Below, one piece after another: positions 1,727-54,013 of a DNA stretch of 64,000 nucleotides. The first letter of the stretch is position 1. Each line of letters starts with the position of its first letter. The notes beneath the pieces were generated by a model. The model was not told where the DNA came from. It worked only from the letters and a program-made list of their open reading frames with translations, and searched no databases. Position numbers and translations under genes: made by a program. The stretch covers positions 107,033,474 to 107,097,473 of the forward strand of contig NC_057717.1 of the NCBI RefSeq assembly GCF_004010195.1, given 5' to 3'. This DNA comes from Chiloscyllium plagiosum. Lineage: Eukaryota.

Positions 1727-2013
1727 CTAGTGTGACTACCGGAACGTTGCCTGAACTCACGAATACTCCTGTTTAAAAGCAATTTTCGAAAGAGCTGTGG
1801 TGAATTCCGTGGTGAACGCCGTGGAGACAAAGGACCAACTCCACACAGCCGCGGACGGAATTGGTCCAAACCATCTGTGTCCAAGGAATTTGGGAAAAAT
1901 GCATCATCCTCAATGTCTCCTTGCGATGATATCTCCCCCAAAAGATTGGCAGACCAGCTTGGGGAGTTTGGGACTTCCAGCTGGGAGCAATGTGAAACAG
2001 AACTTCCCTCCAT
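1727..2013 (-). CDS. PDE4: Alternative first coding exon of a long-form cAMP-specific phosphodiesterase 4 (PDE4B3/PDE4D5/PDE4C3-type N-terminus); paralogue not resolved
   Basis: ATG at 2013 with an in-frame TGA immediately upstream. The translation ends LSPRRSPRNSPQLFRKLLLNRSIR...HT, matching remembered PDE4B3 ISPRSSPRNSPCFFRKLLVNKSIRQRRRFTVAHTC. It ends at a consensus donor AG|GTAAGG (1727/1726) in phase 2, as expected for splicing to the shared long-form exon. Confidence 0.85.
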
Positions 2014-2830
2014 TCAGCAAGTGGTAATGCGCTGACTCCTTGTGTATGACTGGTCAGTCCCTGACAGGGGGTTGCAGATCAAGAAAAGCAGGCATCGGTT
2101 GGAAAATGGCAAGCTGTTCAACATTGCTGAATATCAGTGATACACCGCAGTTATGCATGTATCATTTAATCCTTTTGTTGCTTGTAGCCTTTTTAATGTC
2201 GAAATGTATTTAAAAGTGAAAAGCAGAATTTTCTGTCTCTAGTATGGTACATGTTTCTCATGTCTGTTGATTTTTCTCACTATATTCCAGACATAAGTTA
2301 TAAGTAAGTTCATGTATTAAATTCATGCTAATTTGTAATTATCGATCATTTTTAGCTAAATCGGTAGAATCGTTAGCTGGCTTGAGTATATTTTACACTC
2401 AGTTAGAAAATGTAGATTCCTTTGAATGACATCTAGCTTCCTTCACTCAGAGATTCTGCAGAAATCAGTTCCAAACTTTCCATTGAAGTATCACTTGCCT
2501 GCACTGGGTTTCAGCTTATCAAATCCCCTCATTTACTCCCTCCATTGAAGAGTCAGTAGATTAACTTGTCTCATTCATTTTTTCCATGAGTTACTGTCCA
2601 TGCGAGTGGCATAGATTCAGGCTTGCTTTCCAGCTGCCGATTAGTACACATTGCTGTACACTCCTCCTTTCTGTTTGTTTGTCACAAGGTTCTCAAATAC
2701 CATAATGAGACACACCCTTAAACGCCTGGTCACTGCCAACTGTACAGTGTCGACTGGTTTGCCTCAAATTGGAGCCTCCACACCCCCGTACTGTCCTGGA
2801 GGGAGAGTTAACCTGCCCCTCCTTCGTGCT

Positions 2831-2890
2831 CTATTTAACCAACCACTCTCTACAAGTCCCACCAGGAAGTTCAACTTTCCCTTGACGTCA
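2831..2890 (-). promoter_or_regulatory. Candidate promoter of the PDE4 first exon: full CRE TGACGTCA (2883-2890), ETS-like CAGGAAGT (2863-2870), TATA-like TTAAATAG (minus strand, 2838-2831)
   Basis: Motifs read directly, clustered within 60 bp of non-repeat DNA ~0.85 kb upstream of the ATG and ordered for minus-strand transcription. Confidence 0.55.
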
Positions 2891-3288
2891 GTTATAGTTC
2901 AAGTTAAGTGGTCACTGGAAATCACTGAAAGTCCAAACTTGGTTGTACATGCAGTGCCTCCTGTCTGAGTGGCTCACAGCTAACACTAAATAACCACACT
3001 ACTCAAAGCACTTCACAAATAAAACAGAAACCTTTTTGGTGAATAAGCAAAGATTTGAGGAAAACATTAACTTGTTGAGTTTCTGTGTAATCTGATCAAC
3101 TACAATTTAACCCCTGGTGTACCAGTTTCCCTTGAAGGTTTGCATGTTTCTTTAGCATTTCAAACTTACCTCAGTGAATTTTCTGATTAAACTGAACCAG
3201 ATTGGGAATTCTCTGGAAGTACATGGAACACACTGTTTTATTTCTGATTATGCTAAGCCTTAAATATCTCTGCGCAATAGTCAATGTT

Positions 3289-3478
3289 GAAAATGTGTTG
3301 CTGGAAAAGCGCAGCAGGTCAGGCAGCATCCAAGGAACAGGAGAATCGACGTTTCGGGCATAAGCTTATGCCCGAAACGTCGATTCTCCTGTTCCTTGGA
3401 TGCTGCCTGACCTGCTGCGCTTTTCCAGCAACACACTTTCAGCTCTGATCTCCAGCATCTGCAGCCCTCACTTTCTCA
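3289..3478. mobile_element. PLE pLTR fragment in inverted (fold-back) arrangement
   Basis: ~76 bp arms centred on AAGCTT (3362-3367); 14-bp TSD CAATAGTCAATGTT at 3275-3288 and 3479-3492; same sequence as the 3' end of the PLE at 60110-61860. Confidence 0.85.
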
Positions 3479-4009
3479 CAATAGTCAATGTTCCAAGAAA
3501 GAATCCCTGTCAATCTATAGCAGTATAGCTCAAGCAGAAAAACTGCAGGTCAAGGACATAGTGTCTGTGAGTTGTTTACAATGCTGTCTGATAGGACATT
3601 CTTTCACACTGGAAGGAATCCAACACCTGATCTCCCACATCCTTCTCACTGCTAGTGATCTGGGTAACACTGATCTCCCGCACGTCCGAATGATTGCACC
3701 TATACTAAAACTTGAAACGGCAGGTTGCTTTAAAATAGGCTGATATCCAAACAGAAGGCTGGGGTACTGTTACAAATGGTCCAACCTTCATTTGCTTTCT
3801 GGTCAGTTGGGATGGCAGTATTTCAAGAGATGGAATTAAGAACATGATATAAAAAATATATTGGTTGAAGTGAGATATTGGAATGCTTTACTGAACAACT
3901 CTACCAATAATGTGGTTACTTCTGTGCAGCTTGTTCATCAGTGGTTGTGAGTGTTTGAAATGTCTGAAACTTGATTCACAAGCCCTGTTATTTTCAGGAA
4001 ACCTCTCCT

Positions 4010-4122
4010 TTAATCAACCTATTCAGAGATGTTATTATACACCTCTGGAGCAGCTGAGAGTTGAACATTGGTATCCTGGCTTGGAGGCAGGGATACAACC
4101 ACCACACCACAAAAGGCCCAGA
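4010..4122 (-). mobile_element. Short tRNA-derived SINE (related copies ~26768-26870 plus, ~59715-59822 minus)
   Basis: A-box-like tgtggtgtggtggt head on the minus strand and a shared ctccagaggtgt..taacat..ctgaa tail in three dispersed copies. Confidence 0.5.
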
Positions 4123-4639
4123 AACATCTCTTATATATGTTAAATCAAGCTGCACAGGCAGATGAAATCGAACCCAGGCTTCCTGACTGTGCCACAAGAG
4201 GGCCCAGAAATCTTTCTTATTCAGTAATTGGAAAGTGCTCTCACCTTGCACACTGGATTGATGGGCAATTAAAAATGTGTCTTCTAGGAAGGCTGCAGAG
4301 GTTAGTGAGCAGTTCCTAAGAGAACATTTGCAGGTACTAATGTGATCATAATTCAACATTAATTGGACAATCATCTTCAAAACACAGAAGGGTCTCATGA
4401 TGCACGGAGTGTTCTGGTGTTTCTCTGAAGACGGTTATTGATTGGACTTTGTTGATGGGTTTCTATGAACAGTTGCTGCAGGAAGTGCCTGACACTAACA
4501 GTAGGTGCAAGGAGAGAAAAGTTCCTTCACTGATCCACCACAGCTTAATGAGAAGAAAGGACAGCATTAATGTAGAACAAAACCAGATACAAAGCAGCTC
4601 CTTCCTTGGCTGACATAATCTTAATACAGGACAGAGTGT

Positions 4640-4797
4640 TGATTGCAGATGCTGGAGGTCAGAGTTGAGACTGTAGTGCTGGAAAAGTACAGCAGGTCAG
4701 GCAGCATCCGAGGAGCAGGGGAATCGATGTTTTGGGTATTCCTGATGAAGGGCTTTTGCCCGAAACATCGCATCTCCTGCTCTTTGGGTGCTGCCTG
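4640..4797. mobile_element. PLE pLTR fragments (inverted) with hammerhead-like core
   Basis: tgcagatgctgga...gaatcgatgttt followed by cctgatgaagggcttttgcccgaaacatcg. Confidence 0.75.
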
Positions 4798-5623
4798 CAT
4801 TATCTTAAACCACTCTTTCCCGTGTACATCACGACACTATTGTTACATGTTTCCAGTTTTTCCTTTTTCGGTTGAAATAAAATTGAATTTGCAGCCTTCA
4901 GCAACATTATTAAAGTAAATAAGCAGCTTGATTTCCTCCGGTTTGCTGCATTTTATTTACAGAGTTCCTGGGCTTCTAGCCAGTAGCAGTCTGTTACACA
5001 TTGCCACACAAGGAAATTTCATTCCTCAAACAATTCAACTTACTGCGTGGCATTTCTGGGCTGACATTAGTCGTCTTCTAAATTAGGCAAATCACAACAG
5101 CAGCGACTTTATTTATGCAGGGCATTCAACACTGAAAATTGTCCCAAGATTCTTCACAGGAGCTTTATCAAACAATGTTTGACACTCATCACAAAAGGAC
5201 AGGTGACCAAAAGTTGGATCAGAAAGAGGACAGATAGGGAAGTGGAAAGGTTTTGGCAGGTAGTATAGATAGATCTTAGGGCCTTGGCAGCTGAAGACAT
5301 GGGGAGTGAAGAAAATGGTGCATGTTGAGGAGGTCAGAGTTGAAGGAGCTCTTAGAAAAAAATGATTGAAAACAAAAGATGAGAACTTTAAACTTGAGGC
5401 ATTGTAGTCATCCACTTTTCAACATTAATGGATTCTGTTGAAATTTAGAAGATACTGAATTGTTAGACATTCTTTGAATCAAATAGTGTTTTCTCGAGGA
5501 ATCAGATGAACAGTTTAATGGGAGTTGTAAGCAATCTGCTGATTAGAGAATGTCGCATGATTACTTTGGGAAAAAAAACAAGGAAACCTTTTTAGGGTGG
5601 TTCAAGATCAGCTTCTTCCCTGC

Positions 5624-6541
5624 TGTTATGATACTGCTGAATGGACCTCTCTAACTTCAAATAATGTTGACCTTGCTTTGTGCACCTCCTGTGCAGTGTA
5701 ACTCTGTATGCATCGCTCTGTCTAAGTACCCTATCATCTGTGTGTCATTGTTTGCTATGATCTGCCGTACCTCTTGCAAAACAAAACTTTTCACTGTATA
5801 TAGGTACATATGACTACAATATATCAAATCAAATCAGTCGAGATAAGGGATGAGGCTGGGAAACCTGGTTGGATGAGACTCTAGGGACTTTTCTGGTCTT
5901 GGTTTCTGTTTCAAAACACCAGGAATCAAAAAGAAAAAGATGTTGCAGTAAAGGCGAGTCTCTCTCCTATAATTCTCTCTTGGTTACTGAGAAAGTTTCC
6001 ACATCTCAGTATTTTGACTGCCTTGTAAAATCTGAATAGCTGAACTGTGCCTGCTTTCAAAAACTTGGAAAAAAACCCACTCTCTATATGAACTAAAACT
6101 TGGCTGGGAAATTCTCTATGAGTCTACAGCTGTCAGTAATTCCACCTCATCAATAAAAAAATACAATGGACTCTGAGAATTCATCAAATTTATGTTTTGA
6201 TTTGCAGATCTTTGCCCTTTTTAAATATTTTCTCAAATTATGCATTTTCTGTGCTATGAATGTGTTTGCTTGAGATCAACAAGGGATATGGTATTCTGGA
6301 TAACAGCTTAATTGTTCACTGGTTGGTTACTTGTTTTCAGGAATAAGTTTGTTTTAATTTAATAGATCATTTGTAAATTGAAGGCTGATGAAAGTCTCTT
6401 TTTACCCTGGATAGCATTATAAAAGGGAAACAATTTGATGATTGAATCAAAACATTTATACTAAGGTTTAGGAGGGGGAGGAGGACTTGTGTTGTGGTGG
6501 GGTTTCATTGTCACTACATTGTTCCTGTCACAGTCATAACA
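5624..6541. mobile_element. Possible solo LTR (TGTTATGA...TCATAACA) containing a LINE 3' tail (~5665-5836, (aatca)n end)
   Basis: Perfect 8-bp terminal inverted repeat with TG..CA ends, the same terminus as the LTR at 44280; no TSD seen. Confidence 0.4.
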
Positions 6542-6649
6542 ATATTACAGGACCAGCCTCACCAATATTGGTCTGTGAGAACAGCTGGAGTGGGTGGGGG
6601 TGATGAACAATGATATAACAACTATACACTTAAAAGTAAAGCCTTGGGC

Positions 6650-8270
6650 AGTCGTAGAGTCATTGAGATGTACAGCATGGAAACAGACTCTTCGATCCAA
6701 CTTATCCATGCCGGGCAGATATCCCAACCCAATCTAGTCCCACCTGCCAGCACCTGGCCCATATCCCTCCAAACCCTTCCTATATTCATATACCCATCCA
6801 GATAACTTTTAAATGCTGTAAATGTACCACCCTCCACCACATCCTCTGGCAGCTCATTCCATACACACACCACCCTCTGTGTGAAAAAGTTGCCCCTTAG
6901 TCTCTTTTATATCTTTCCCCTCTCACCTTAAACGTATGCCCTCTAGTTCTGGACTCACCCACCCCAGGGAAAAGACCTTGTCTATTTACCCTATCTGTGT
7001 CCCTCATAATTTTATAAACCTCTATAAGGTCACCCCTCAGCCTCTGACGCTCCAGAGAAAACAGCTCCAGCCAAAACAGCTCCAGCCTATTTAACCTCTC
7101 CCTGTAGCTCAAATCTGCAACCCTGGCAATATCCTTGTTAATCTTTCTGAACCCTTTCAAGTTTCACAATATTCTTCCTATAGGAGTGAGACCAGAATTG
7201 CACACAACATTCCAAAAGTGGCCTAACCAATGTCCTGTACAGTCTCAACAATGATCTCCCAACTCCCATACTCAATACTCTGACCAATAAAGGAAAGCAT
7301 ATCAAACACCTTCTTCACTATCCTATCTACCTGTGACTTCACTTTCAAGCAACTATGAATCCGCACTCCAAGGTGTCTTTGTTCAGCAACACTCCCCAGG
7401 ACCTTACCATTCAGTGTATAAATCCTGCTAAGACTTGCCTTTCCAAAATGCAGCACCTCACATTTATCAAAATTAAACTCCACCTGCCACTCCTCAACCC
7501 ATTGGCTCGCCTGATTAAGATCCTGTTGTTCTCTGAGGTAACCTTCTTCGTTGTCCACTACATCTCCAATTTTGGTGTCATCTGCAAGCTTACTAACAAT
7601 ACCTCCTATGTTCACCTTCAAATCATTTATATAAATGACAAAAAGCAGTGGACGCAGCACTGATCCTTGTGGCAGACCATTGGCCACAGGTCTCCAGTCT
7701 GAAAAACATCCCTCCACCACCACCCTCTGTCTTCTACCTTTGAGCCAGTTCTGTATCCAATGGCTAGTTCTCCCTGTATTCCATGTGACCTAACCTTGCT
7801 AATCAGTCTCCCATGTGGAACCTTGTCAAACGCCTTACTGAAGTCCATATTGATCAGGTCCACCACTCTGCCCTCCTCAATCCTCTTTGTTACTTCAAAA
7901 ACTCAAACAGGTCAGTGAGACATGATTTCTCAAATTACAGCTGTGTTGGCTATCCCTAATCAGTCCTTGCCTTTCCAAATACATATAAATCCTGTCCCTC
8001 AGGATTCCCTCCAACAACTTGCCCATCACTGGTGTCAGGCTCACTGATCTATAGTTCCCTGGCTTTTCCTTTTCATCTTTCTTAAACAGTGGCACCACGT
8101 TAGCCAACCTCCAGTTTTCCGGTACCTCACCTGTGACTATCGATGGTGCAAATATCTCAGCATGAAGCCCTGCAATCACTTCCGTAACTTCCCACAGAGT
8201 TCTAGGGTACACCTGTTCAAGTCCTGGGGATTTATGCATTTTAAGACAGCTAGCACCTCCTCCTCTGTAA
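6650..8270 (-). mobile_element. CR1 LINE, decayed ORF2 reverse transcriptase (RT) and 3' end
   Basis: Frameshifted ORFs with PGNYRSVSLT, MDFSKAFDKVPH, LPQGSVL, ADDTKIG and RLRGDLIEVYKIM. Confidence 0.92.
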
Positions 8271-8960
8271 TAGAACAGAGACACTGGGAGGTTCAGGTGC
8301 ATAATACTTTGAAGTTTGCATCACATAGAGTAGTTCAGAAGGCGTTTAGCGTGTTTGCCTTCATTGCTCAGATCTTTGAATATAGGAGTTGGGACATTAC
8401 TTTGAGGTTGTACAGGACATTGGTGAGGCGTTTTCTGGAGTACTGTGTCCATTTCTGGTCTTCTGGTTATTAGAAGGATATTATCAAGCTGGAGGGGATT
8501 CAGAAGAGATTTACCAGAATGTTGCCAGGAATGGGAGGTTTGTGTTATTAGGAGAGGCTGGATAGGCTGGGAAGTTTTTCACTGGAGTATAGGAGGTTGA
8601 GAGTGGCCTTGTAGAGGCTTATAAAATAATGTAGGGTATAGAGAAGGTGAATGGCAGGTGTCTTTTCCCCAGGTGGGAGATTTCAAGACATATTTTTAAG
8701 GTCAGAGGAGAAAGATTAAAAAAAGACACAAGGATCAATTTTTATTTTACACAGAGAGTGGTTCGGTGTGTGTGTAATGAACTTCCAGAGGAAGTGGTGG
8801 TTGCGGGTACAGTTACAAGATTTGAAAGACATTTGGATAAGTAGATGAATAAGAATTGTTTGGAGGGATATGGGGCCAAGTGCAGGCAGGTGGGGCTAGT
8901 ATAGTTTTGGATTATGGTCAGCATGGAGTGGTTGGCCTGAAGGGGCTGTTTCTGTGCTGG
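8271..8960 (+). mobile_element. CR1 LINE 3' fragment, opposite orientation to its neighbour
   Basis: LYRTLVRRFLEYCVHFWS motif and CR1 3' UTR (tggcctgaaggggctgtttctgtgctg). Confidence 0.85.
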
Positions 8961-9339
8961 GTGGATTGATGACCTAGTGCAGAGTTTGCACTCTGATTGC
9001 ATCCTGTGAATTTGCCACAACATTGTGAACTTCATGTATTCCAGCTGAAGCTGGCAGTGTGCATTTCATGAAGAAAAACATCCTAGCTGCAAACCCAGCC
9101 TTCAAATTGTTACCAAGAAGACAAATTCTGGAATGGATCGACTTATCGCTGGATATTAAACAGCAAAACAAAACTGAAGTCTGAGGTGCTTATGTCACTA
9201 AATGTGCATACATGCATGATGATGATGTATACGTGATCATAAATCAATAGGCTAGCACCATTTTATCCTGCAGCACCTTCAGAAGCTGAGCATGAGATAG
9301 GAAAGGAAAAGATCCTAAACAGCTTAGTCATACAAGCAT

Positions 9340-9456
9340 CTGAGGGATAGGGGTATGTTCTGAGGCGTAGGGATATGTTCTGAGGCGTAGGGGTATGTTC
9401 TGAGGGGTAGGGGTATGTTCTGAGGTGTAGGGGTATGTTCTGAGGGGTAGGGGTAA
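9340..9456. repeat. 20-bp tandem repeat (taggggtatgttctgagg[cg]g), about 5-6 copies
   Basis: Direct repetition. Confidence 0.9.
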
Positions 9457-10359
9457 GTTCTTTTTTCTGGGTAGTTAGGTAAAGCCTTTCCTTAGTGATG
9501 CCCTCAGCCCTCAATGCCACCATGCTTGGTTCTTGAAACTCCCACCTCCATTGCATTATCCTCACTCATTTGCTTGATTTTCAAAACTCCAGCCTCCAGC
9601 TGTCTGGTCCCATTACTAAATTATCTCATATTTAAGCAACAGCTTAGGCAAACAGATGGTGCCATTTCCCCACCAGCACAGCCAGTCCTCTTCCAGGTCA
9701 CTTCAGTCCTGTTTCTTCCACACTGTTTGCCAGTATATTATACTGTACATATGTAGAAAAAGCAGTGGATGTTGGTTTGAGTGGAAAGGTACAAAGAAAG
9801 CTGCTGCTATGCAGCAGTTTTCACAAACTGATAATGTTCCAACATGTTTTAACATCCAGTGAACTACAGGCAGACAATAGGACCTGTAAAACATTAGCTG
9901 TTTGAGAACAGATATTATCAGCAGTTGTTAACCATTGCATACGGAAGATTCGTGACACAAATTTAACAATGATAACAAATCAAAATATTTAGGAAGTGAG
10001 GCAGTTTGATCAAGGAGTTAGTGTCAAGGTGTGAGACAATTAGTGACAGCTGGTGCCTTGTTGCATTGGCACTCAGCGAGAGCCACAAATCAAACTTTGT
10101 GCCATCAGGTTGTAGAAAGTATTGTAAAGGTGATAAAGCATTTGCTAATAACCCGCTAAACACAACAGCTGAGGGTGTTTAACATTCACCACAGTTATTC
10201 TGTCCCACATCAGAGAAACATAAAAACACGACTGTCCAGAAGTAACCAATATCGCAGCTATGGCTACAGTCTGGGTAGGTGGGACACTGTAAAGGCACTG
10301 GGTTAATTACACAGACTCTAAAGGGTCACAATGGCATGAATTCTGCTTGTGGCCTGCAC

Positions 10360-13300
10360 TAGTAATAGCCAGATATAAATTAGGAGCAGGAGTAATAGCC
10401 ACATTTAAATTAGGAGTAAGAGTATTCGCCACATATAAATTAGAAGTAGGAGTAATAGCCACATGTAAATTAGGAGCAGGAGTAATAGCCACATATAAAT
10501 TAGGAGCAGGAGTAATAGCCACATGTAAATTAGGAGCAGGAGTAATAGCCACATATAAATTAGGAGTAGGAGTAATAGCCGCATGAAAATCAGGGGCAGG
10601 AGTATTAGCCACATGTAAAATAGGAGCAGGAGTAAAAGCCACACGTAAATTAGGAGCAGGAGTAATAGCCACATGTACATCAGGAGTAGGAGTAATAACC
10701 ACATGTAAATTAGGAGCAGGAGTAATAGCCACACGTCAATTAGGAGCAGGAGCAATAGCCACATTTACATCAGGAGTAGGAGTAATAACCACATGTAAAT
10801 TAGGAGCAGGAGTAATAGCCACACGTAAATTAGGAGCAGGAGCAATAGCCACATGTAAATTAGAAGCAGGAGTAATAGCCACATGTAAATTAGGATCAGG
10901 AATAATAGCCGCATGTATATTAGGAGCAGTATTAATAGCCACATGTAAATTAGGAGCAGGAGTAAAAGCCACATGTAAATTAGGAGCAGGAGTAAAAGCC
11001 ACATGTAAATTAGGATCAGGGGTAATAGCTGTATATAAATTAGGAGCAGGAGTAATTGCCAAATGTAAATTAGCGGCAGGAGTAGTAGCCAGACGTAAAT
11101 TAGGAGCAGGAGTAAAAGCCACATGTAGATTAGGAGCAAGGATAATAGCCACATGCAAAGTAGGAGCAAGAGTAGTTGCCACATGTAAATATGGAGCAAG
11201 GATAATAGCCAGATGTAAATTTGGAGCAGGAATACTAGCCACATGTAAGTTAGGAGCAGGACTAAAGCCACATGTACATTAGGAGCAGGACTATAGCCAT
11301 ATGAAAATTTGGAAGAGGAGTAATAGCCNNNNNNNNNNNNNNNNNNNNNNNNNNNNNNNNNNNNNNNNNNNNNNNNNNNNNNNNNNNNNNNNNNNNNNNN
11401 NNNNNNNNNNNNNNNNNNNNNNNNNNNNNNNNNNNNNNNNNNNNNNNNNNNNNNNNNNNNNNNNNNNNNNNNNNNNNNNNNNNNNNNNNNNNNNNNNNNN
11501 NNNNNNNNNNNNNNNNNNNNNNNNNNNNNNNNNNNNNNNNNNNNNNNNNNNNNNNNNNNNNNNNNNNNNNNNNNNNNNNNNNNNNNNNNNNNNNNNNNNN
11601 NNNNNNNNNNNNNNNNNNNNNNNNNNNNNNNNNNNNNNNNNNNNNNNNNNNNNNNNNNNNNNNNNNNNNNNNNNNNNNNNNNNNNNNNNNNNNNNNNNNN
11701 NNNNNNNNNNNNNNNNNNNNNNNNNNNNNNNNNNNNNNNNNNNNNNNNNNNNNNNNNNNNNNNNNNNNNNNNNNNNNNNNNNNNNNNNNNNNNNNNNNNN
11801 NNNNNNNNNNNNNNNNNNNNNNNNNNNNGTAGCCACATGAAAATTAGGAGCAGTAGTAATAACTGCATGTATATTAGGAGCAGTAGTAATAGCCACACGT
11901 AAATTAGGATCAGGGGTAAGAGCCACATGTAACTTAGGAGGAGTAACAGCCACATGTAAATTAGGAGCAGGAGTATAGCCACATGTAAATTAGGATTAGG
12001 AGTAATAGCTATATGTACATTAGGAGCAGGAGTGGTAGCCACATGTAAATTACAATCAGGGTAATAGCCGTATGTAAATTAGGAGCAAGGATACTAGCTG
12101 CACGTAAATTAGGATCAGGAATAGTAGCCACATGTAAATTAGGAGCAGGAGCAGTAGCCACAGTAAATTAGAAGCAGGAGGAATAGCCACATGTAAATTA
12201 GGATCAAGGATATTAGCCACATGTAAATTAGGAGCAGGAGAAATAGCCACATGAAAATTAGGAGCAAGAGTAATAGCCACATGTAAATTACGAACAGGAG
12301 TAGTAGCCACATGTAAATAGGAGCAGGAGTAATAGCCACATGTACATTAGTATCAGGAGTAATAGCCACATGTAAATAAGGAGCAGGAGTAGCACGCACA
12401 TGTACATTAGGAGCAGGAATAATAGCCAGATGTGAATTACGAGCAGGAGTAATAGCCACGTGTGCATTAGGATCAGGAATAATAGCCACATGTAAATAAT
12501 GAGCAAGGTTAATAGCCACATGTAAATTTGGAGCAGGACAGTAGCCACCTGTAAATTAGGAGCAGGATTAATATCAACATATAACTTAGGAGCAGGAGTA
12601 ATAACCACATGTAAATTAGGAGCAGGAGTATAGCCACATGTAAATTAGGAGCAGGAGTATAGCCACATGTAAATTAGGAACAGCAGTAATAAGCACATGT
12701 AAATTAGGAACAGGTGTAATACCCACATGTAAATTAGGACAAGGAGTAATAGCCACATGTAAATTAGGAGCAGGAGTAATAGCCACCTGCAAATTAGGAG
12801 CAGGAGAATTAGCCACATGTAAATTAGGAGCAGGAGTAATAGCCGCATGCAAATTAGGAGCAGGAGTAATAACCACGTGTAAATTAGGAGCAAGAGTAGT
12901 TGCCACATGTAAATTTGGAGCAGGGGTAATAGCCACATGTAAATTGGGAGAAGGAGTAATAGCCACCTGCAAATTAGGAGCAGGAGAAGTAGCCACATGT
13001 AAATTAGGAGCAGGAGTAATAGCCACCTGCAAATTAGGAGCAGGAGAAGTAGCCACATGTAAATTAGGAGCAGGAGTAAAAGCCACATTTGAATTAGGAG
13101 CAAGGGTAATAGCCACATGTAAATTAGGAGCAAGGGTAATAGCCACATGTAAATTAGGAGCAAGGGTAGTAGCCACATGTAAATTAGGAGCAAGGGTAAT
13201 AGCCACATGTAAATTAGGAGCAAGGGTAATAGCCACATGTAAACCACGAGCAGGAATAGTAGCCACATGTAAATTAGAAGCAGGAGTAATAGCCACATGT

Positions 13301-33888: not shown

Positions 33889-33899
33889 ATTGTCACTGA

Positions 33900-41730: not shown

Positions 41731-42327
41731 GCAATCTCTCAATTCTTGCTGTTTCCTAGGTAACTACAATTAAACTTGAAGAGTTGGTGGCGTGCAATCA
41801 CGTGATAGGGGAAGGCTTTTAGTGGTTAAACCTGTCGTCAGCCAATAATGTAACACTTATGGGTTTGGTATTAATGAGCTTCCTGGACAAACAGGGAGTT
41901 AGACAGGAGGTGAAAAAGCAGGACCCCAATGGTAGAAATCTCTGGATTACTTCTGGTGTCTTGTGCTAATGAGAGTAGGAATAGGAGGACAAGGCAGATG
42001 AATGCGTGGCTGAGGAGTTGGGGACAGGGATTCAGATATTTGGAGCTTTGGGATTTCTTCTGGGGCAGAGTTGATCTGTACAGAAAGCGACAAGTTGCGC
42101 CTGAACTGGAAGGGAACCAATATGCTGGTGAGGAGATTTGCTGAGCTACTCGGGAGGGTTAAAACTGGTCTGTCAGGGGGATGGGATCCTAAGAGGTAGT
42201 GAGACAAGAGAGGAAGTTGAAGCTAGTGCAGAAGTTATTGAGCACCAGTTAAAGAGATTCAGCGGGCAAGAGTATGGCAGGGAACAAGGGAAAACTGATC
42301 AATTAGACAGCATTAATTTCAATGCTT

Positions 42328-44279
42328 AGAGTCATAGAGATGTACAGCATGGAAACAGATCATTTGATCCAACTCATCCATGCCAACCGGATATCCTAAC
42401 CTAATCTAGTCCCATTTGACAGCACTTGGCCCATATCGCCAAACCCTTCCCATTCATATATCCATCCAGATGCCATTTAAATGTTGTAATTGTACCAGAC
42501 TCCATCACTATCTCGGGCAACTCTGCCTGAAAAGGTTGGCCCTTAGGTGCCTTAAGTCTTTCCCCTCTCACTCTAAACCTCTGCCCTCTCGTTCTGAACT
42601 CCCCCAACCCAGGGAAAAAATCTTGTCTATTTACCCTATCCATGCCCCTCATAATTTTATAAACCTCTATAAGGTTACCCCTCAGCGTTTGACACTTCAG
42701 GAAACACAGCCCCAGCCTATTCAGCCTCCCCCTATAGCTCAAATCCTCCAACTCTGGTAACAGCCTTGTAAATCTTTTCTGAACCCTTTCACATTTCACA
42801 ATATCTTTCTGATAGGAAGGAGACCAGAATTGCACACAATATTCCAAAAGTGGCCCAAACAATGTGCTGAACAGCTGCAACATGACCTCCCAACTCCTGT
42901 ACTCAATACTCTAACCAATAAAGGTAAGCATACCAAACGCCTTCTTCACTATCCTATCTACCTGCGACTCCACTTTCAAGGAGCTATGAACCTGCACTCC
43001 AAGGTGTCTTTGTTCAGCAAGACTCCCCAGAACCTTTCCATTAAGTGTGCAAGTCCTGCTGTGATTTGCCTTTACAAAATGCAACACCTCACATTTATCT
43101 AAATTAAACTCCATCTGTCACTCCTCGGCCCATTGGCCCATCTGATCAAGATCCCATTGTAATCTGAGGTAACCTTCTTCGCTGTCCATTATACCTCTAA
43201 TTTTGGTGTTATCTGCGATCTTACTATATACCTCCTATGTTCACATCTAATTCGTTTATATAAATGATGAAAAGCAGTGGACCCAGCACTGATCCTTGTG
43301 GCACACCACTGGTCACAGGCCTCCAGTATGAAAAACAACCCTCCAACACCACCCTTTGTCCTTTACCTTCAAGCCAGTTCTGTATCCAAATGGTAAATTC
43401 TCCTTGTAATTCTTATGATCCAACCTTGCTAACTAGTTCTGGATATAGGTTTGCTCACTGAGCTGGAAGGTTCATTTCCGGACTTTTTGTCACCCACAGG
43501 ACCCACTGAAGATGTTATCTAGTATAGTGACGAAATGTCTGGAAATGAACCTTCCAGCTCAGCAAGCAAACCTACATCCACAACCTCAACCTGGTCTACA
43601 AATCTTTTCAAAACTCGCTTGCTAACAAGTCTATCATGTGGAACCTTGTTGAATGCCTTACTGAAGTCCATATACATCATATCCACCACTCTGCCCTCAT
43701 CAATCCAATTTGTTGCTTCTTCAAAAAATTCAAACAAGTTAGTGAGACATGATTTCCTACTCACAAAGCCAGGTTGACTATCCCTAACCAGTGCTTGTGT
43801 TTCCAAATACATTACTTCCTGTCCCTCAGGATTCCCTCCAACAACTTGCCCAACACCAATGTCAGGCTCACTGGTCTATAGTTCGTTGGCTTTTCCTTAC
43901 CACCTTTCTTAAATAGTGGCACCATGTTAGCCAACCTCCAGTCTACCGGCACCTCACCTGTGACTATCAATGATACAAATATCTCAGCATGAGGCTCAGC
44001 AATCACTTCCCTAGCTTCCCACAGAGTTCTAAGGTACACCTTTTCAGCCCGTGGGGAGTTGTCCACCTTTATGCGTTTCAAGACATCCAACATCTAATCC
44101 TCTGTAATGTGGACATCTTCCAAGATGTCCCCATCTATTTTCCTACAGTCTATATCTTTCATGGCCTTCTCCACAGTAAACACTGACACAAAATACTCGT
44201 TTGGTTTCTCCCCCCATCTCCTGCGGCTCCACATACAGGCTAAATTGCTGATCTTTGAGGTGTCCTATTCTTTCCTTAG
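42328..44279 (-). mobile_element. CR1 LINE ORF2 and 3' end with a PLE pLTR insertion (43438-43617); truncated at the LTR
   Basis: NYRPVSLT, MDFSKAFNKVPH and LEYCVQFWSP motifs; imperfect 13-bp TSD CTTGCTAAC(T/A)AGT. Confidence 0.92.
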
Positions 44280-46215
44280 TGTTATGAAGATGTGGGTGTA
44301 CTGTAGCTTTAAGACAGTTAAAAGCTAGCAAAAACTATCCGACAGCACCAAATGTTCTGAACAAAGATACAATATAACATGTGCTCCAGCTACTGGGGTA
44401 GCTAGGGTAGCTGGTTTCCTGGAAATGACAAAACAGATTTGAATTAGGTCAATCAGTTTAAATTATACCCTGAAAAATACCAAACTCCAATCCAGTTTGA
44501 AATTATTACATTGACTATCTTAAAAGCCAATGACACAATCCGATGCTTTGGTGGGGGGGGTGGGTATAAGACTGGGGAAATTGAACAGTTGAGAGGAGAA
44601 CTGCCAAGTTACCAGCATGTAAAGACTATCTGAATTATAGCTCTCTCAAAAGATTTTTTTATCAAAAAGTAACCTGTGAAGCAGAATCCCCAAGAAGAAG
44701 AAAAGACAACAGGAATATAGAGATTAGATTAGATTACTTACAGTGTGGAAACAGGCCCTTCGGCCCAACAAGTCCACACCGACCCGCCGAAGCGCAACCC
44801 ACCCATACCCCTACATTTACCCCTTTAACCTAACACTATGGGGAATTTAGCATGGCCAATTCACCTGACCCGCACATCTTTGTGACTGTGGGAGGAAACT
44901 GGAGCACCCGGAGGAAACCCACGCAGACACGGGGAGAATGTGCAAACTCCACACAGTCAGTCGCCTGAGTCGGGAATTGAACCTGGGTCTCTGGCGCTGT
45001 GAGGCAGCAGTGCTAACCACTGTGCCACCGTGCCGCCCATAGGAAAACCAAAAGCTGCCTGGTTTTGAGATAAGAAGTTTTGTTTTGTAAATTGTAATCG
45101 GGATTCTTATCAGACTAGTATTATAGAAGGGAAGGTAAAAGATAGGTTAGAGAGGAGTTGTAAGTAGTTGTTAGTTAATTATTCTCTGTTTTGCTTTAAG
45201 AAATAAAGTTGTTAATTTTTACTTTAAATAGTTCTTGGCCTCTTTAATTTTCACAGATTACTGCATGGGATAAATCTTTTCTGTGTTTCTGGTTTACAGG
45301 TTGAGGAGAGTTTACCTCGTGTTGTAACAGTTTGGGGGCTCAGGTCCGTGACTTGAACTGTTTTAGACAGATTTGATTAGATTTGGGGGTATGAAAAATT
45401 CCAGCAGATATAAACACTTGCAGGTTAGTGTCCTAGATATTAAAATAACACATAGGTGAGGCAATTTGTTTACTTTCGGTCACTTGCGGCTGAGTCAATT
45501 AAAAATGAGAGAAATGGGTCTTAAAATTGCTAAAGAGGTTCTGGGATTTGAAGATGATTCACAAATTTGCCAAGAAAGTTTAGAAGGAAAGAAAAAGGCC
45601 ATATTTTTAGAATTAGCAAATGCGTTAGATTTGGGCTTCGCCAAGGACAAAAGTAAAGCTGAAATTGTAAGGGAATTACTCAAACACTAAGGTGTATTAG
45701 AGAAGTGCAGTAGAGGTAGAAAAATTTAAATTACAATGGAGGAAAATGGAGTTAAAAAATAAACAAAGACAGAGAAAGAGGAAAGAGAGAGGGAGAGAGA
45801 AAGAGTGAGAGGAGAGAGAGAGAAGGTTCTTCGCTGAGCAAAGAGAGAGAGAGAAGAAGAGGAGAGAGGAGAGAGAGAGGAAAACAAGAGAGAAAGTTTT
45901 TAGCTGAGCAAAAAGAGAGAGAATTTGAACTTGAGAAGTCGTGACTTGGTCAGCAAGGATGGAGATTAAAAGAGAAGGTAGTGGTATATATAAATATGTC
46001 AAAACTCTGTCACATTTTGCTGAGAAAGATGTTGAAGTCTTCTTCATTTCATTTGAAAAATTGGCTCGGCAAATGGAGTAGTCCGAGGATTTATGGGTAA
46101 TGCTAGTTCAGACTAAACTGGTAGGCAGAGCTAGTGAGCTATTTGCTGCACTGTCGGATGAGGTGTCAAGAGATTATGAAAAGGTCAAACAGGCTATTTT
46201 AAGTGCTTATAAATT
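44280..46215 (+). mobile_element. Gypsy (Gmr1-like) LTR retrotransposon 5' remnant: LTR 44280-45329, tRNA-Pro-like primer-binding site (PBS) ~45333-45350, disrupted gag ~45512-46215
   Basis: TGTTATGA...TTGTAACA ends; internal AATAAA; TGGGGGCTC..GTCC after the LTR; gag-like text (coiled coil, FAEKDVEVFFISFEKLA..W..L....L.GRA...DYEKVKQAILSAY) with stops. Confidence 0.8.
44721..45038 (-). mobile_element. Young HE1 V-SINE inserted in the LTR
   Basis: Full head, V-domain and (tctaa)n tail. Confidence 0.93.
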
Positions 46216-46614
46216 GAATTCAGATTCAACTATCTGCCATGGCAGGATTTGAACTCATGTCCCCAGAACATTACCTGGCTCTCTGGGTGAATAGTCTAGC
46301 AATAATGCCATAGGCCATCACCTCCCCCTTAGAGGTAGATCTCAAATTATGGACAAACATTAATCTTACTTGCACTGCAAGTTGTGTTCAATAATGTCAA
46401 GTGACTCCAAGAAGAATGAGAGAGAGAAGACTTTAGTCTCTCAGTTTGGACCACAATCTTTTTCTAGTTTATGGCATTAGACAGTCTGAGAGATGATGAT
46501 CATATGGTTAAGTCTCAATTAAAAACAAATTGATTCACCATCAAGGCCAGCATTTGCTGCCCATCCCTAATTACCCTGGAACTGAGCAGCTTGCTAGGCC
46601 ATTTGAGAGGGCAG

Positions 46615-47055
46615 AAACGTCGATTCTCCTGTTCCTTGGATGCTGCCTGACCTGCTGCGCTTTTCCAGCAACACATTAGAATAGATTAGATTAGATTACT
46701 TTACAGTGTGGAAACAGGCCCTTCGGCCCAACAAGTCCACACCGACCCGCCGAAGCGCAACCCACCCATACCCCTACATTTACCCCTTACCTAACACTAC
46801 GGGCAATTTAGTATGGCCAATTCACCTGACCCTGCACATCTTTGGACTGTGGGAGGAAACCGGAGCACCCGGAGGAAACCCACGCAGACACGGGGAGAAT
46901 GTGCAAACTCCACACAGTCAATCGCCTGAGGTGGGAATTGAACCCGGGTCTCTGGTGCTGTGAGGCAGCAGTGCTAACCACTGTGCCACTGTGCCGCCCA
47001 CTGTGCCACCCACATTTTCAGCTCTGATCTCCAGCATCTGTAGTCCTCACTTTTT
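46615..47055. mobile_element. PLE pLTR fragment containing an HE1 SINE (46678-47010, minus)
   Basis: Outer 16-bp TSD CCATTTGAGAGGGCAG (46599-46614, 47056-47071); inner CACATT duplication around the SINE. Confidence 0.88.
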
Positions 47056-47129
47056 CCATTTGAGAGGGCAGTTAAGTGTCAATCATATTGTTGTAGATTG
47101 CCTGTAATATGTATCCTAGATGTGGAGGT

Positions 47130-48020
47130 GCTGGTGTTGGCCGAGCAGAGGCTGATAGCCAAGTTCAATATCCATGAGGATGGCCTCAACTGGGTTCTGA
47201 GTTCATGTCACACTACAGGTGACCACTTCACTATACATTCTCACACACACACTCACACACGTACACACACACTCTTACACACAGTCACACTCACACAGAC
47301 CCTCTCTCATACACATGTTCTCTCTCAAACACACACTCACACTCACGCACACACATCCTCTCATAGGCATATACTCTGTCATATGCGTGCACACACTCTA
47401 TCAAGCACGCATGCACACACACACACTCTCTCACTCCCTCACACGTGCACACACACACACGCAAGCACACACACACACTCTCTCACTCCCTCACACGTGC
47501 ACACACACACACACGCAAGCACACACACATCTAAAGCTATGGGGTGAATTTGCATTTGCAGATACATTCTATTTAATTCAAAAAGCAGACAATCTGTAGG
47601 CAGCCAGTCTATGTAACATTTTATAAATTCCTACTTTGGAAATAGAATAAGTCTGACTCAAGGTCAGAATATAGACCAACTCTAACCTCACACCTTTAAC
47701 GCATTGTCTGAGCTGAGATGTCACCTTTTATTAAAAAACCTTAAGTTATCTTGGGACTGTGATTTGAAAGAAGTTCTGGGATTTACATATTAATGAATCG
47801 AAACCTACATCCTCATTCTAAGTGATTAAAGACTTAATAGCAAACTAGGTTTGATCAATACATCGCATCAGTTGTGTGACACTTTGATCTTTTACTATAA
47901 ATTCTGTGTCCTATGATCCTACCCCACTAGCTACCTGATGTAGGACCAGCGGTCTGAAAGCTTGTACTTCCAAATAAACCTATTGGACTATAACCTGGTG
48001 TTGTGTGATTTTTAACATGT
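47130..48020 (+). mobile_element. PLE 3' fragment (EQRLIAKF..HEDGLN), (CA)n-rich tract and pLTR
   Basis: GIY-YIG C-terminal GLN motif; ctacctgatgtagg...ctgaaagcttg pLTR of the second family. Confidence 0.7.
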
Positions 48021-48786
48021 ATCCTATTATCAGCAACCAGCACATCAATGAAAACTTTAACAATACAGAGCAAGATGTTACTGATTCAGTTTAGAATATC
48101 ATTCTTTGTGAGTGCAGTAGGGAATGATTAATTTGTCAGGAGAATACATTGTTTTTCATAGACTCTGAAAGGGCTAATGTATAGTAACCACTCCATCTTC
48201 CTACAGAGGGTAGTGTTTCATCAGGAAATTCATTAGAGGCCACTGCAGAGAAGCAACCAATGGGTGGGAAGTATGTCAGTGAACGTGGTTTCAACAGATT
48301 TGGAATCACTCACACCTGGGAAGTCTCACTTGTCTGACCCAGAGGCTGTCCAACCTTTCTGGGCCACTATTCAATTTTTCTCTCACTCAGGGTCCCTGAT
48401 GAGTAAATTTCAGAAAGACAATGTTTTGCACATAGCAAATGTGAATTTTAGGAATTCCAAAGCAATAAAGCAATCATATAAACTCTGTCTCTCTCCTTCC
48501 CCTCATGCACGCTCACTGTCTCTCCTACTCACACTCTTTCCCTAATACACACACCCTTTCCCTCACAAGTATTCTCTCTCTCAAACACATCTTTGTCTCT
48601 CCCTCCCTATTAGTCCCCACACTATGGCCCCACTTCCCATACAGTCACAAACTCTCTCCCATGCTCTGTCTCACTCCAAGACTTGCCTCCTCATTCAATT
48701 CCTCCTGAGCTGTGAGACTTAAACATTTTCAGGTTGTGGACTTTGCATTTTCACTCAGCCATGTCTTACACTGAAGCTGCCGTGGC

Positions 48787-48881
48787 TTATGCCCGAAGAA
48801 GGGCTTATGCCCGAAACGTCGATTCTCCTGTTCCCTGGATGCTGCCTGACCTGCTGCGCTTTTCCAGCAACACATTTTCAG
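48787..48881 (+). mobile_element. Short PLE pLTR insertion
   Basis: 18-bp TSD CACTGAAGCTGCCGTGGC (48769-48786, 48882-48899). Confidence 0.85.
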
Positions 48882-49144
48882 CACTGAAGCTGCCGTGGCA
48901 GGCATGGGTGCCTGCTGAATGTTGCTGCTGCTCCTCATGGTCTCCCCGGCCTGCACTGCTCTCTTGTGCTCCTTCAGGGGACCAGGAACAATGCCACATG
49001 TGGAGACACAATAGTCCATATGGAGTCAATTACTTGGACACTGCCTGCTGCTCATTCAAACACAGGCCGTTTCTTTCATGTATTTGCTGCTGATTGTTTA
49101 CACCTGCATTTCACTGCTGACCCTATTGGCCCTTATATCAGTGG

Positions 49145-50262
49145 GGTTGGAGTATAAGAATGGCAAGTCTTACAGCAACAATATAACGTGTTGGTGAGAC
49201 CATATCAGGAGTACTGTGAGCAGTATTGGTTCCCTTATTTAAGGAAAGTATTATTTCATTGGAGTCAGTTCAGAGAAGATACAGTAGGATGATCCCTGGT
49301 ATGGAGGGACTGTCTTATGAGCAAAGGTGAAACAGGTTGGAACTCTATTCATTGCAGTTTAGAAGAATGAGAGGTGATCTAATTGAAATATAGGGTGTAG
49401 GTTTGCTCGTTGAGCTGTAGGTTTGATATCCAGACGTTTCATTACCTGGCTCGGTAACATAATCAGTAGCGACCTCCAAGTGAAGCAAAGCTGTTGTCTC
49501 CTGCTTTCTATTTATATCTTTCTCCTGGATGGGGTTCCTGGGGTTTGTGGTGATGTCATTTCCTGTTCGTTTTCTGAGGGGTTGATAGATGGCATCTAGA
49601 TCTATGTGTTTGTTTATGGCGTTGTGGTGGGAGTCCCAGGCCTCTAGGAATTCTCTGGCATGCCTTTGCTTAGCCTGTCCCAGGATAGATGTGTTGTCCC
49701 AGTCGAAAAGGTGGCTTTTTTTATCCGTGTGTAGGGCTACGAGGGAGAGGGGGTCGTGTCTTTTTGTGGCTAGCTGGTGTTCGTGTATCCTGATGGCCAA
49801 CTTTCTTCCTGTTTGTCCTACGTAGTGTTTGTGGCAGTCCTTACAAGGAATTTTGTAGATGACGCTGGTTTTGTCCATGGGATGTACTGGGTCTTTTAAG
49901 TTGAAAGATTGAAATATATTGGATTCTTAAGGGGTTTGACAGAATAAATGCTGAGAGGATGTTTCCCCTCAAAGGGACCAAAGGGCATGGTCTCAGAATA
50001 AAGAGTGCCAGTTTAAGAATGACATGAGTAAGAATTTCATCCCTGAGGGTTGAGCGTTTTTGTAATTCCTTGCGACAGAGAGCTGTCAAGAGTCCTTGGG
50101 TATATCTAGAGTGGACAGAGATCCTTGATCGGTCAGACAGTCAAGGGTTATGGGGAAAATGCAGGAATGGAGATGTGAGGAACGTTGGATCAGCCATGAT
50201 CCTATTGATTGGCAGAGCAGGCATGAGGGGCTGAACGACTGACTCCTGTTCCTACTTCTTAT
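49145..50262 (+). mobile_element. CR1 3' fragment hosting the PLE insertion at 49393-49907
   Basis: gtgagaccatatcaggagtactgtg and gaggtgatctaattgaaat motifs; CR1 tail. Confidence 0.75.
49393..49907 (-). mobile_element. PLE (Penelope/Poseidon-type) GIY-YIG endonuclease fragment plus pLTR
   Basis: VIYKIPCKDC..HYVGQTGR.L..RI.EH...H....H.FDW....IL.....R..LE; 11-bp TSD ATTGAAATATA (49382-49392, 49908-49918). Confidence 0.9.
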
Positions 50263-50860
50263 GGTCTGATGGATTGTTTAAGCAGCTGTTGTCCAATCCA
50301 CTCCTTTCTCTGTTGTTCCGAATGTCCTGGACAAGGCCTTGCGAACCACCTGTGGCTCTGGCCACCTGCTGGACCAGCCCTGTCTGAACCAATTGAGTTT
50401 CTATACAACCTGCCAGATTGGCAGCATGGGAAGAGGCATTATATAACATGCTGTGTACCAGGTAATTCATTCTCAAAGAGTAAAGTTCCAGCCATTATCC
50501 CCAGTGACTCGCATGGTAACTGCTGAACCGAATCAAATGCAAATGCAGATATTGGGACTCAGTTCAGTTTGTTCTGGAAGTGGACAAAGCAACTGAGATT
50601 TTCTTATTGCTCCATAAACATTGGCAACATTGTCAACTCACCACCACTTTCCCCAGGGCATTTAGGGGTGGGCAATTAACGCAGGTCTGGGCAGTAACTA
50701 AAGGAGTAACTAAATTTAATAAAACCCCCTGCAGCTTGGACCAATATCAGGTTTGGTAGGGTCATTGTGATCATGGGCATATGTTATCCATCCCTAATTG
50801 CCCTTGAACTGTGGTTACTATTTCAGAGGGCAGTTAAAGGTCAACCAAATTGTTTTGGAG

Positions 50861-51257
50861 CTGAAAATGTGTTGCTGGAAAAGCGCAGCAGGTCAGGCAG
50901 CATCCAGGGAACAGGAGAATCGACGTTTCGGGCATAAGCCCTTCTTCAGGGACTCACTGAAATCTTTGTAGAGGGAGGAAGAGAGCTTCTTCAAGGAAGG
51001 CATCCTTGTAAGAGGATTCGCAGTAGGTTGAAATCTTTGAGGAGAAAGTGAGGTCTGCAGATGCTGGAGATCAGAGCTGAAAATGTGTTGCTGGAAAAGC
51101 GCAGCAGGTCAGGCAGCATCCAGGGAACAGCATGAAGAAGTGCTTATGCCCGAAACGTCGATTCTCCTGTTCCCTGGATGCTGCCTGACCTGCTACGCTT
51201 TTCCAGCAACACATTTTCAGCTCTGATCTCCAGCATCTGCAGACCTCACTTTCTCCT
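50861..51257. mobile_element. PLE insertion with tandem and inverted pLTRs
   Basis: Two minus-strand pLTR copies and one plus-strand copy; imperfect 15-bp TSD CAAATTG(T/C)TTTG(G/T)AG. Confidence 0.85.
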
Positions 51258-51763
51258 CAAATTGCTTTGTAGTCACATGTAGGCCAGACTGGGTAAGGAT
51301 GGCAGATTGCTTTTCTTTTAAAATCAGTGATTTTTAAAAATATAACAATCAATAATGGTTTCATAGTAACTACATCAAACACAAGCTTTAAAATGCAGAT
51401 GTATTGATTGAATTTAAATCCTAGCAGCTGGCATAGTGGAGTGCTGAGCACTATGCATTTCTAGCCTAGTCTCAATTTCACTGTAGTACCATCTCACCAC
51501 CTGATGGGAGACATTGATGCACTGCTTTTCATTCAGTTTCTTTTTCGTTTCAATCTCAACTCACTGCATTGTTTTAAAAAATTCAGTTTCACAGTGTGTG
51601 ATGCCTTTGGATGTTCTTGATAGGATGAGGTGCCAGAGACTGTCTACGGTACTGCGTGCACTCAGCAAGACAAAGCAACTTCAACAAACAGAAAGGAGAA
51701 TAGAAAGACTTGGGGAAAGAAACTGAATTTATATAATGAACTAAACTAATTTAAAAGAAATTA

Positions 51764-52141
51764 GCGGCATGGTGGCACAGTGGGTGGGCAGCACGGTGGC
51801 ACAGTGGGTGGGCAGCACGGTGACACAGTGGTTAGCACTGCTGCCTCGCAGCGTCAGAGACCCGGGTTCAATTCCCGCCTCAGGCGACTGACTGTGTGGA
51901 GTTTGCATGTTCTCCCCGTGTCTGCGTGGGTTTCCTCCGGGTGCTCCGGTTTCTTCCCACAGTCCAAAGATGTGCAGGTCAGGTGAATTAGCCATGCTAA
52001 ATTGCCCGCAGTGTTAGGTAAGGGGTAAATGTAGGGGTATGGGTGGGTTGCGCTTTGGCGGGTCGGTGTGGACTTGTTGGGCCAAAGGGCCTGTTTCCAC
52101 ACTGTCATGTAATCTTATCTAATCTAATCTAATCTTAATCT
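51764..52141 (+). mobile_element. Young HE1 V-SINE with triplicated 5' head
   Basis: Full element with (tctaa)n tail. Confidence 0.93.
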
Positions 52142-53125
52142 AAAAAAAAATGTGAAACATATGTTCTGTTGGGCTTAATGCTGTTAAAAGAGGCACTGAC
52201 AAGAAATTGTGCAATATAAATACTGGATAAATTGGGCTTTAACTACCATCTGGTCTCTTTAGGGTTTAATGCAGTTACCTAACACTGAGGATGTGTTCCC
52301 AGAGTCAGATCAGATCCGCTGCCTGCCTTTTAATTCCATTTACAGATCTATTTTCTCCATTTTGAAGTCAGCAACATATCTCGTGCATCTTATTGCTTAA
52401 ACATTGGAAAGCAAATTTATCGACAGACATGCTGCGGCTGTGGATGCACCTGCCCAGGGAGTACAAAGCACATTATTTTTCTCTCCGTGACTATAATCTG
52501 CTATCAAGTATAATTCATTCACCTGCTGTTCTGTGTCATTACATTTGGTTTGAACCGACTTCATGAAAATACCTTCTGTACGATCTGGGATTTGAACCTT
52601 TAGCTGTATCTAACTGTTGACACTTTGGTGCTGTGTTTTATCAAAGAATACTGTCTGAATTGAATGGATGCCATCATAGTCCCATCTACCAGCTGAAGAA
52701 CCAGTGATAACCCTGCCATACTCCTAATTTTAGGAGTTTAGTTGGTGGTGTGATGTAAGGTGCATGTTGGCATGATACAGCTTATTTTAAGGGATATCTC
52801 GTGTCAATTGGGATTGAATAGAGAGATATTGCATTTCAGATGAGGAAGGGAGGTCTCCAACTTGTGTACAATATGTTTTTGGTTTCGCTCCAGTTCATCT
52901 TTGGACAATGCAGTGGGCAGTCACCCAGTCAATGGATAACTACGAGGAGCTTCTGTTAGAAAACATAAATTTTTCAAACTCCAAATTAAGCGATTTTTAA
53001 TGTTTGTGAATGAGGTGCCAATGAAGTGGGCTGCTCTGTCCTGGATGGTGTCAAATTTCTCGAGTGTTGTTAAGAGCTAAGCATATCCAGGCAAGTGGGG
53101 AGTATTCCATCACATTCCTAACTTG

Positions 53126-53330
53126 GTTAAAAATCACACAACACCAGGTAATGGTCCAACAGGTTTATTTGGAAGCACTAGCTTTCGGAGCGATGCTCCT
53201 TCATCAGGTGGTTGTGGAGAATAAGATCCGAAAGCTAGTGCTTCAAAATAAACCTGTTGAACTATAACCAGGTGTTGTGTGAAATTTAACTTTGTATACC
53301 CCAGTCCAATACAGGCATCTCCAAATCATG
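53126..53330. mobile_element. PLE pLTR (second family) fold-back
   Basis: Inverted arms around a hammerhead-like core. Confidence 0.75.
53176..53210 (-). ncRNA. Minimal type I hammerhead ribozyme motif (PLE-associated)
   Basis: Minus strand CAC-CUGAUGA-A-GGAGC-AUC-GCUCC-GAAA-GC-UA-GUG: stem I CAC/GUG, intact core, 5-bp stem II, palindromic AGCU stem III. Confidence 0.7.
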
Positions 53331-53861
53331 ACTCCTAACTTGTGCCTTGCAGATAGTGGACNNNNNNNNNNNNNNNNNNNNNNNNNNNNNNNNNNNNNNN
53401 NNNNNNNNNNNNNNNNNNNNNNNNNNNNNNNNNNNNNNNNNNNNNNNNNNNNNNNNNNNNNNNNNNNNNNNNNNNNNNNNNNNNNNNNNNNNNNNNNNNN
53501 NNNNNNNNNNNNNNNNNNNNNNNNNNNNNNNNNNNNNNNNNNNNNNNNNNNNNNNNNNNNNNNNNNNNNNNNNNNNNNNNNNNNNNNNNNNNNNNNNNNN
53601 NNNNNNNNNNNNNNNNNNNNNNNNNNNNNNNNNNNNNNNNNNNNNNNNNNNNNNNNNNNNNNNNNNNNNNNNNNNNNNNNNNNNNNNNNNNNNNNNNNNN
53701 NNNNNNNNNNNNNNNNNNNNNNNNNNNNNNNNNNNNNNNNNNNNNNNNNNNNNNNNNNNNNNNNNNNNNNNNNNNNNNNNNNNNNNNNNNNNNNNNNNNN
53801 NNNNNNNNNNNNNNNNNNNNNNNNNNNNNNNNNNNNNNNNNNNNNNNNNNNNNNNNNNNNN

Positions 53862-54013
53862 ACAAGGAGAGAAACAGCACAGGAGAGGAGGAGACAAGCT
53901 GCCACAGCTCAGAAGAGACCATGTTGTGCACAGCTGAGGCACAGGAAGACAGCAGCACCAAGGAGGGACAAATAGGCACCACAGCCAAGGACACATCTTC
54001 TGTAGAGTCATAA
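53862..54013 (+). CDS. PDE4: 3' part of a terminal coding exon, PDE4-like C-terminus (5' end lost in the gap)
   Basis: The frame from 53864 reads KERNSTGEEETSCHSSEETMLCTAEAQEDSSTKEGQIGTTAKDTSSVES*. This resembles remembered PDE4D [22 protein letters not shown] and the PDE4B end EDKSPVDT. TAA at 54011-54013. This frame is not in the ORF track. Confidence 0.65.

Follow-up and report, generated by a model that had tools for sequence, protein, structure and literature searches.

Why should one stretch of a shark chromosome carry the first and the last coding exon of a PDE4 gene (a cAMP phosphodiesterase) pointing away from each other, with none of the enzyme's core between them? We analysed a 64,000-nt window of Chiloscyllium plagiosum (NC_057717.1, assembly GCF_004010195.1; 107,033,474-107,097,473 of the forward strand; all coordinates below are those of the window). 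A sequence-only reading of this window had noticed a PDE4 first exon transcribed leftward, a PDE4 last-exon fragment transcribed rightward that starts mid-codon right after a 500-N gap, unrelated repeat DNA on the other side of that gap, and no upstream conserved region (UCR) or catalytic exons in between, and had proposed that an inverted or mis-joined block splits one PDE4 gene. Our searches bear out all four observations and support the proposal. We conclude, with a probability of about 90%, that the scaffold is mis-oriented or mis-joined and splits one ordinary PDE4A-like gene, and that the arrangement is an assembly artefact with no real genomic feature behind it; almost certainly, the animal's own gene is not rearranged and pieces of the assembly were joined wrongly. 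The features are collected in Table 1.

Table 1. Features of the window that bear on the split PDE4A-like gene.
Feature	Position	Strand	Details
Alternative long-form first coding exon, PDE4A-like gene	1727..2013	-	95 codons + 2 nt, phase 2; SPRNSP..LFRKLL motif; GT donor 1726-1725
About 51 kb without PDE4 coding exons	2014..53361		Repeats, satellites, unique non-coding DNA
Perfect cAMP response element (CRE) palindrome	2883..2890		About 870 bp upstream of first-exon ATG; sole copy in window; TTAAATA about 45 bp further towards exon
30-bp satellite array	10361..16917		Spans gap 11329-11828, same orientation on both sides; about 200 sequenced copies
Interspersed repeat fragment, cut off at gap	52999..53361		Other copies in window; interrupted at 53126-53332
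Suspected mis-join	53362..53861		Exactly 500 N
3' part of last coding exon, PDE4A-like gene	53862..54013	+	2 nt of a cut Asp codon, 49 codons, stop
Probable 3' untranslated region and downstream DNA	54014..58981	+	End uncertain; AATAAA at 58772 and 58976, among others

Two ends of one PDE4 gene

The minus-strand exon opens with an ATG at 2013 and ends with AG at 1727, followed by GTAAGG. It is intact, and it matches aa 1-94 of the zebra shark PDE4 isoform X1 (P0022) with 81% identity over 94 aa (tblastn E 3e-41) and the Heptranchias PDE4 (P0003) with 63%, the latter being the one match among 53 candidates in a protein search. The exon's final two bases supply the Ser found just before the common FDVENG exon in P0022; the donor thus has the phase needed for joining that exon. 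The first exon is one of several alternatives, with at least four long-form first exons across the isoforms of the relatives, and it is probably of the PDE4B3/PDE4D5 type.

On the plus strand, 53864-54010 encodes the C-terminal 49 aa and the stop codon lies at 54011-54013. The AC at 53862-53863 completes an Asp (D617 of P0004, another protein of the set) that is invariant in 6/6 aligned orthologues, the cut falling after the first base of the codon. The sequence-only reading was right to place the break within the last exon; the exact spot that it gave, near QFELTLEE, has to be moved 8 codons further on. This tail is identical at 48 of 49 residues to the intact proteins of Chiloscyllium punctatum and Hemiscyllium (one difference from each) and 84% identical to P0022, and a protein search with it matched 5 of 10 candidates, all of them carpet-shark PDE4-domain proteins (best 98%). 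A partial catshark protein of 128 aa begins at V539 of P0004, and together with the usual PDE4 exon borders this residue would mark the start of the last exon; on these two grounds, about 235 nt of the 5' part of the exon would be missing at the gap.

All matches of the two fragments were PDE4-domain proteins, homologous at the PDE4 termini, although neither fragment alone hits a Pfam family; a tail from a non-PDE4 protein, the outcome that the sequence-only reading had named as fatal to it, was thus not what we found. The comparison set consisted of 191 collected proteins, searched against the window by tblastn at E<=1e-3. The first exon was matched by 39 of them, and the 11 best, each from a different species of shark or ray, matched the tail as well (11/11). 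P0022 begins with the first exon and ends with the tail, and intact gene models exist in C. punctatum (X1-X4, on a 64.5-Mb record) and in the zebra shark (X1-X4, on a 25.4-Mb record). By this protein similarity, the two pieces in the window are the two ends of one PDE4 gene. They correspond to the termini of the shark and ray PDE4A-like enzymes (zebra shark XP_048377828.1; C. punctatum XP_072420585-8; Heptranchias XP_067829004.1), but unlike in those genes the two ends face apart, and no UCR1/2 or catalytic exon lies in the window.

Search for core exons in the window

Among the 191 proteins only three places of the window were matched, namely the first exon, the tail and 57331-57423, and no UCR or catalytic exon was found. 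In a lenient tblastn with 6 proteins (E<=10), every other match in the window had E>=0.29 and none was near-identical. A Pfam scan of 337 open reading frames (ORFs) of at least 55 aa, from which large tandem arrays and gaps were left out and which shorter exons of other genes would escape, gave reverse-transcriptase fragments (4 ORFs) and 3 weak matches below the cut-off, and nothing else; no PDE family appeared, and the controls P0003 and P0004, proteins carrying both pieces or the tail, were detected with their PDEase_I and PDE4_UCR domains. The other first exons of the relatives' isoforms were likewise not found in the window.

In the vertebrate PDE4 layout, as described in PMC2929239, every long-form 5' exon precedes the UCR1a exon and the arrangement of exons is conserved; one working gene could therefore not have its first and last exons on opposite strands as drawn. 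That account places several long-form 5' exons before UCR1a, and the exon of the window is likewise one of several; sharks are not treated in the parts consulted. The 51 kb at 2014..53361 are probably an upstream intron of the same gene.

The third match, at 57331-57423, came from a single whale shark gene model, in which the tail is spliced onto that stretch; beyond the tail, order and strand are thus preserved across the 492-N gap.

Which paralogue

Pristis and Leucoraja are the species with two paralogues bearing this type of first exon in the protein set. Against the small-chromosome gene of these two species the first exon scored 98 and 74 bits, respectively, and its score against the PDE4B paralogue was 49 bits; in Pristis the tail scored 42 bits against the gene and 36 against the PDE4B paralogue. 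A PDE4A orthologue would be expected to group with the PDE4A of tetrapods, coelacanth, lungfish and gar, apart from PDE4B and PDE4D. In a tree of 22 rows chosen from 193 proteins and cut to the common region wherever the motif was present (with a single PDE4D-like row, on a long branch, and without a true PDE4C row), the shark gene fell in one clade with the PDE4A-named rows with support of 91/94, which is below the starred threshold, and the PDE4B rows stood apart with 95/92. Most of the best 120 matches outside cartilaginous fish are named PDE4A, and a PDB search did not separate the paralogues. The gene is likely PDE4A on these comparisons. Database names for the isoforms of one shark or ray gene vary by isoform (PDE4A, 4B, 4C and 4D-like; P0003-P0008, P0011-P0017, P0024-P0034), and the tree suggests that these isoforms are all PDE4A.

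The gap at 53362-53861

Four runs of N are present in the window: 11329-11828 (500), 20804-21173 (370), 53362-53861 (500) and 55708-56199 (492). The lengths of the pieces between them are not round numbers, which has no bearing on the question of the join. Only at 53362-53861 do the flanks of a gap disagree, with an interspersed repeat on the left and unique coding sequence on the right. This repeat has other copies in the window: 52999-53119 is 85% identical to 18783-18664 and the last 22 nt before the gap are 91% identical to 18661-18640, a copy that continues past the point of the cut. The tail is unique coding DNA that begins in mid-codon directly at the N run, so the adjacency of the two sides is not backed by a single sequenced base. 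A break introduced by a misjoin editor could explain a cut that falls within a unique exon.

According to PMC9292758, 3d-dna and SALSA2 insert 500 N by default, and inversions and misjoins are commoner in Hi-C scaffolding as its read pairs carry no orientation. Like mis-joins of this kind, the gap shows a fixed-length spacer of exactly 500 N, conserved gene parts in orientation conflict across the spacer, and an unsequenced junction.

The other gaps behave differently at their flanks. At the 370-N and 492-N gaps, similar repeats flank the N run on each side. The second 500-N gap (11329-11828), which the sequence-only reading did not discuss, lies within the 30-bp satellite: 16 sampled 30-mers agreed at a mean of 28.0/30 in the forward and 15.9/30 in the reverse orientation, and all 134 matches of the satellite fell in 10361-16909 with none reversed, the array occurring nowhere else in the window. 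Since the satellite is consistent across that gap, the orientation conflict lies at 53362-53861.

For 53862-55020, 20 of the 24 sequencing runs listed contained at least half of the words of the stretch, and none of those listed was RNA. Contigs of 4 of the 24 runs were compared with 52200-55020, and among the 32 pieces listed none spans the gap, the output being filled by a high-copy repeat. The contigs of one run cover 52200-53053 and 53306-53361; this run is perhaps the window's own source and would then not be independent. The tail side was almost uncovered by run contigs, a hole that the filter can cause.

Putative promoter, repeats and mobile elements

Upstream of the first exon, the CRE palindrome and the TTAAATA, a TATA-like stretch at about 2832-2838 on the minus strand, form a possible promoter. 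One such palindrome also arose in 37 of 100 shuffled windows, so that it is within chance and not significant alone. A cAMP-inducible promoter is named for PDE4D5 in the title of a reference cited by PMC2929239.

The older repeat at 52999-53361 carries a palindromic insertion at 53126-53332, which matches itself over 53126-53290 at 81% and has a 10-bp target-site duplication on either side (53116-53125 and 53333-53342). Related palindromes lie at about 3280-3477 and 51036-51261, and the element at 53126-53332 is very high in copy number in the contigs of the sequencing runs. Rfam found no hammerhead in the insertion, and 0 matches in the whole window, at the gathering score. Two related, decayed LINE-like reverse-transcriptase copies lie on the minus strand at 6655-8959 and 42327-44108 (RVT_1 at 7226-7902 and 43227-43875). 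At 60060-61860 on the plus strand are frameshifted, C-rich, retroelement-like ORFs (59918-60988, 60444-61097, 60989-61744 and 61098-61826) with no Pfam match at E 0.01, which resemble a Penelope-type element. Neighbouring genes were not found by Pfam among the ORFs of at least 55 aa, a search that does not cover exons below 55 aa.

Discussion

We propose that the scaffold piece bearing the first exon was attached, wrongly oriented or misplaced, to the one bearing the end of the last exon, with a fixed 500-N spacer set between them. The blocks 1-53361 and 53862-onwards would then stand in opposite orientation, or would adjoin without an intermediate piece, and in the animal the first exon, the core exons and the last exon would follow in that order on one strand and encode a normal cAMP phosphodiesterase. 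The piece with the first exon would run on leftwards into the UCR and catalytic exons. Slightly better than even, in our estimate, is the chance that the left block was flipped in place, its far left end stopping at the first base of the Asp617 codon; the core exons would then be found on the minus strand before the start of the window, as the sequence-only reading predicted, and their last codons would be those for FQFELTLEEEEESDRS, with a single G following. Alternatively, with a chance nearer to one in three, the core exons are on another piece. Either block, the left or the right, may be the flipped one. Beyond what the pieces show, three points are inferred: the Hi-C origin of the gap, the error in the join and the location of the core exons.

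We presume that the shark first exons can be matched to the PDE4D types and that the 5'-3' order of the latter is D7, D4, D5. By analogy with PDE4D, the 51 kb between the exon and the gap would be intronic, and in the true genome another two first exons would follow past 53361; in the assembly, exons of the MKKSSSV and MDPPPCS types would accordingly be expected on the plus strand, past the far end of the flipped block. The Fig. 6 legend of PMC2929239 lists the PDE4D exons D7, D4, D5. The Vertebrate Genomes Project preprint (10.1101/2020.05.22.110833) describes cases in which a gene is divided between scaffolds, as well as false duplications. A literature search on shark pde4a, and on Hi-C misassembly and split genes in sharks, yielded no report of the PDE4 locus, the pde4a papers being judged by title and start of abstract. 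As for a truncated annotated form, 0 of the 191 proteins with the FQFEL motif end at the break, in searches that were not built to find one.

Several points weigh against a mis-join. The gap is taken as a Hi-C join from its length alone, and 500 N is by itself no proof of error, because the other 500-N gap (11329-11828) looks correctly joined. The first exon occurs in no collected hemiscylliid protein, C. punctatum X1-X4 starting otherwise, so the link of the exon to the gene comes from the zebra shark and more distant species; furthermore, the proteins that make this link are predicted models. In Leucoraja the tail scores 33.9 bits against the PDE4B paralogue and 30.0 against the orthologue, and because it slightly favours PDE4B, distant tail scores alone cannot tell the paralogue. 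Finally, although the undamaged state of both pieces (an open frame, a GT donor in phase, and a tail that departs from either hemiscylliid protein at a single residue out of 49) favours a mis-join, intact frames are also compatible with a very recent real break.

Such a break, a recent inversion or translocation that interrupts PDE4A inside its last exon in the species or the individual, would account for the opposite orientation that is truly present in the given sequence. It would require, however, a breakpoint that coincides exactly with a round spacer at which no junction base is sequenced, both pieces are intact, and the closest relatives have whole genes; we therefore regard it as improbable, marginally more so than a duplication. 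The latter would place two gene copies back to back, from a real local duplication or from a falsely retained haplotype, and it draws on Hemiscyllium, in which the gene is found on a 33.3-Mb and a 153-kb record (P0013, P0015), and on the preprint cited above, which calls false duplications beside gaps common. The Hemiscyllium products are identical at 496 of 499 aligned residues and differ in just 3 where the alignment begins, which is what an assembly duplicate would show. Each other species listed has one record length for this gene, and two copies would leave the mid-codon cut at the N run unexplained. Duplication thus appears unlikely here, and the near-identical products suggest an assembly problem at the same locus in Hemiscyllium too.

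We give almost no weight to an origin of the two pieces from two neighbouring PDE4 paralogues. The core motif of the exon is common to PDE4B-named proteins (65% over 34 aa) and the database names of the orthologues vary (4A, 4B, 4C, 4D-like), but the exon scores in Pristis and Leucoraja given above favour the small-chromosome gene, and both pieces occur together in single proteins (81% and 84%), so that P0022 largely refutes this origin. A scaffold piece set in the wrong orientation or place fits the 11 proteins that hold both ends, the break at 500 N and the intact relatives, and is the explanation that we prefer.

Related sharks and rays have this gene whole, and there is nothing unusual about it. 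A real break would mean that a conserved signalling enzyme had been disrupted naturally, with PDE4A altered at its C-terminus or lost in this shark and intact in its nearest relatives. As a probable error of orientation or placement at 53362-53861, the finding is of value for curation only: it would truncate or split the PDE4A model in the assembly, and such a misassembly could pass for gene loss or rearrangement in comparative work.

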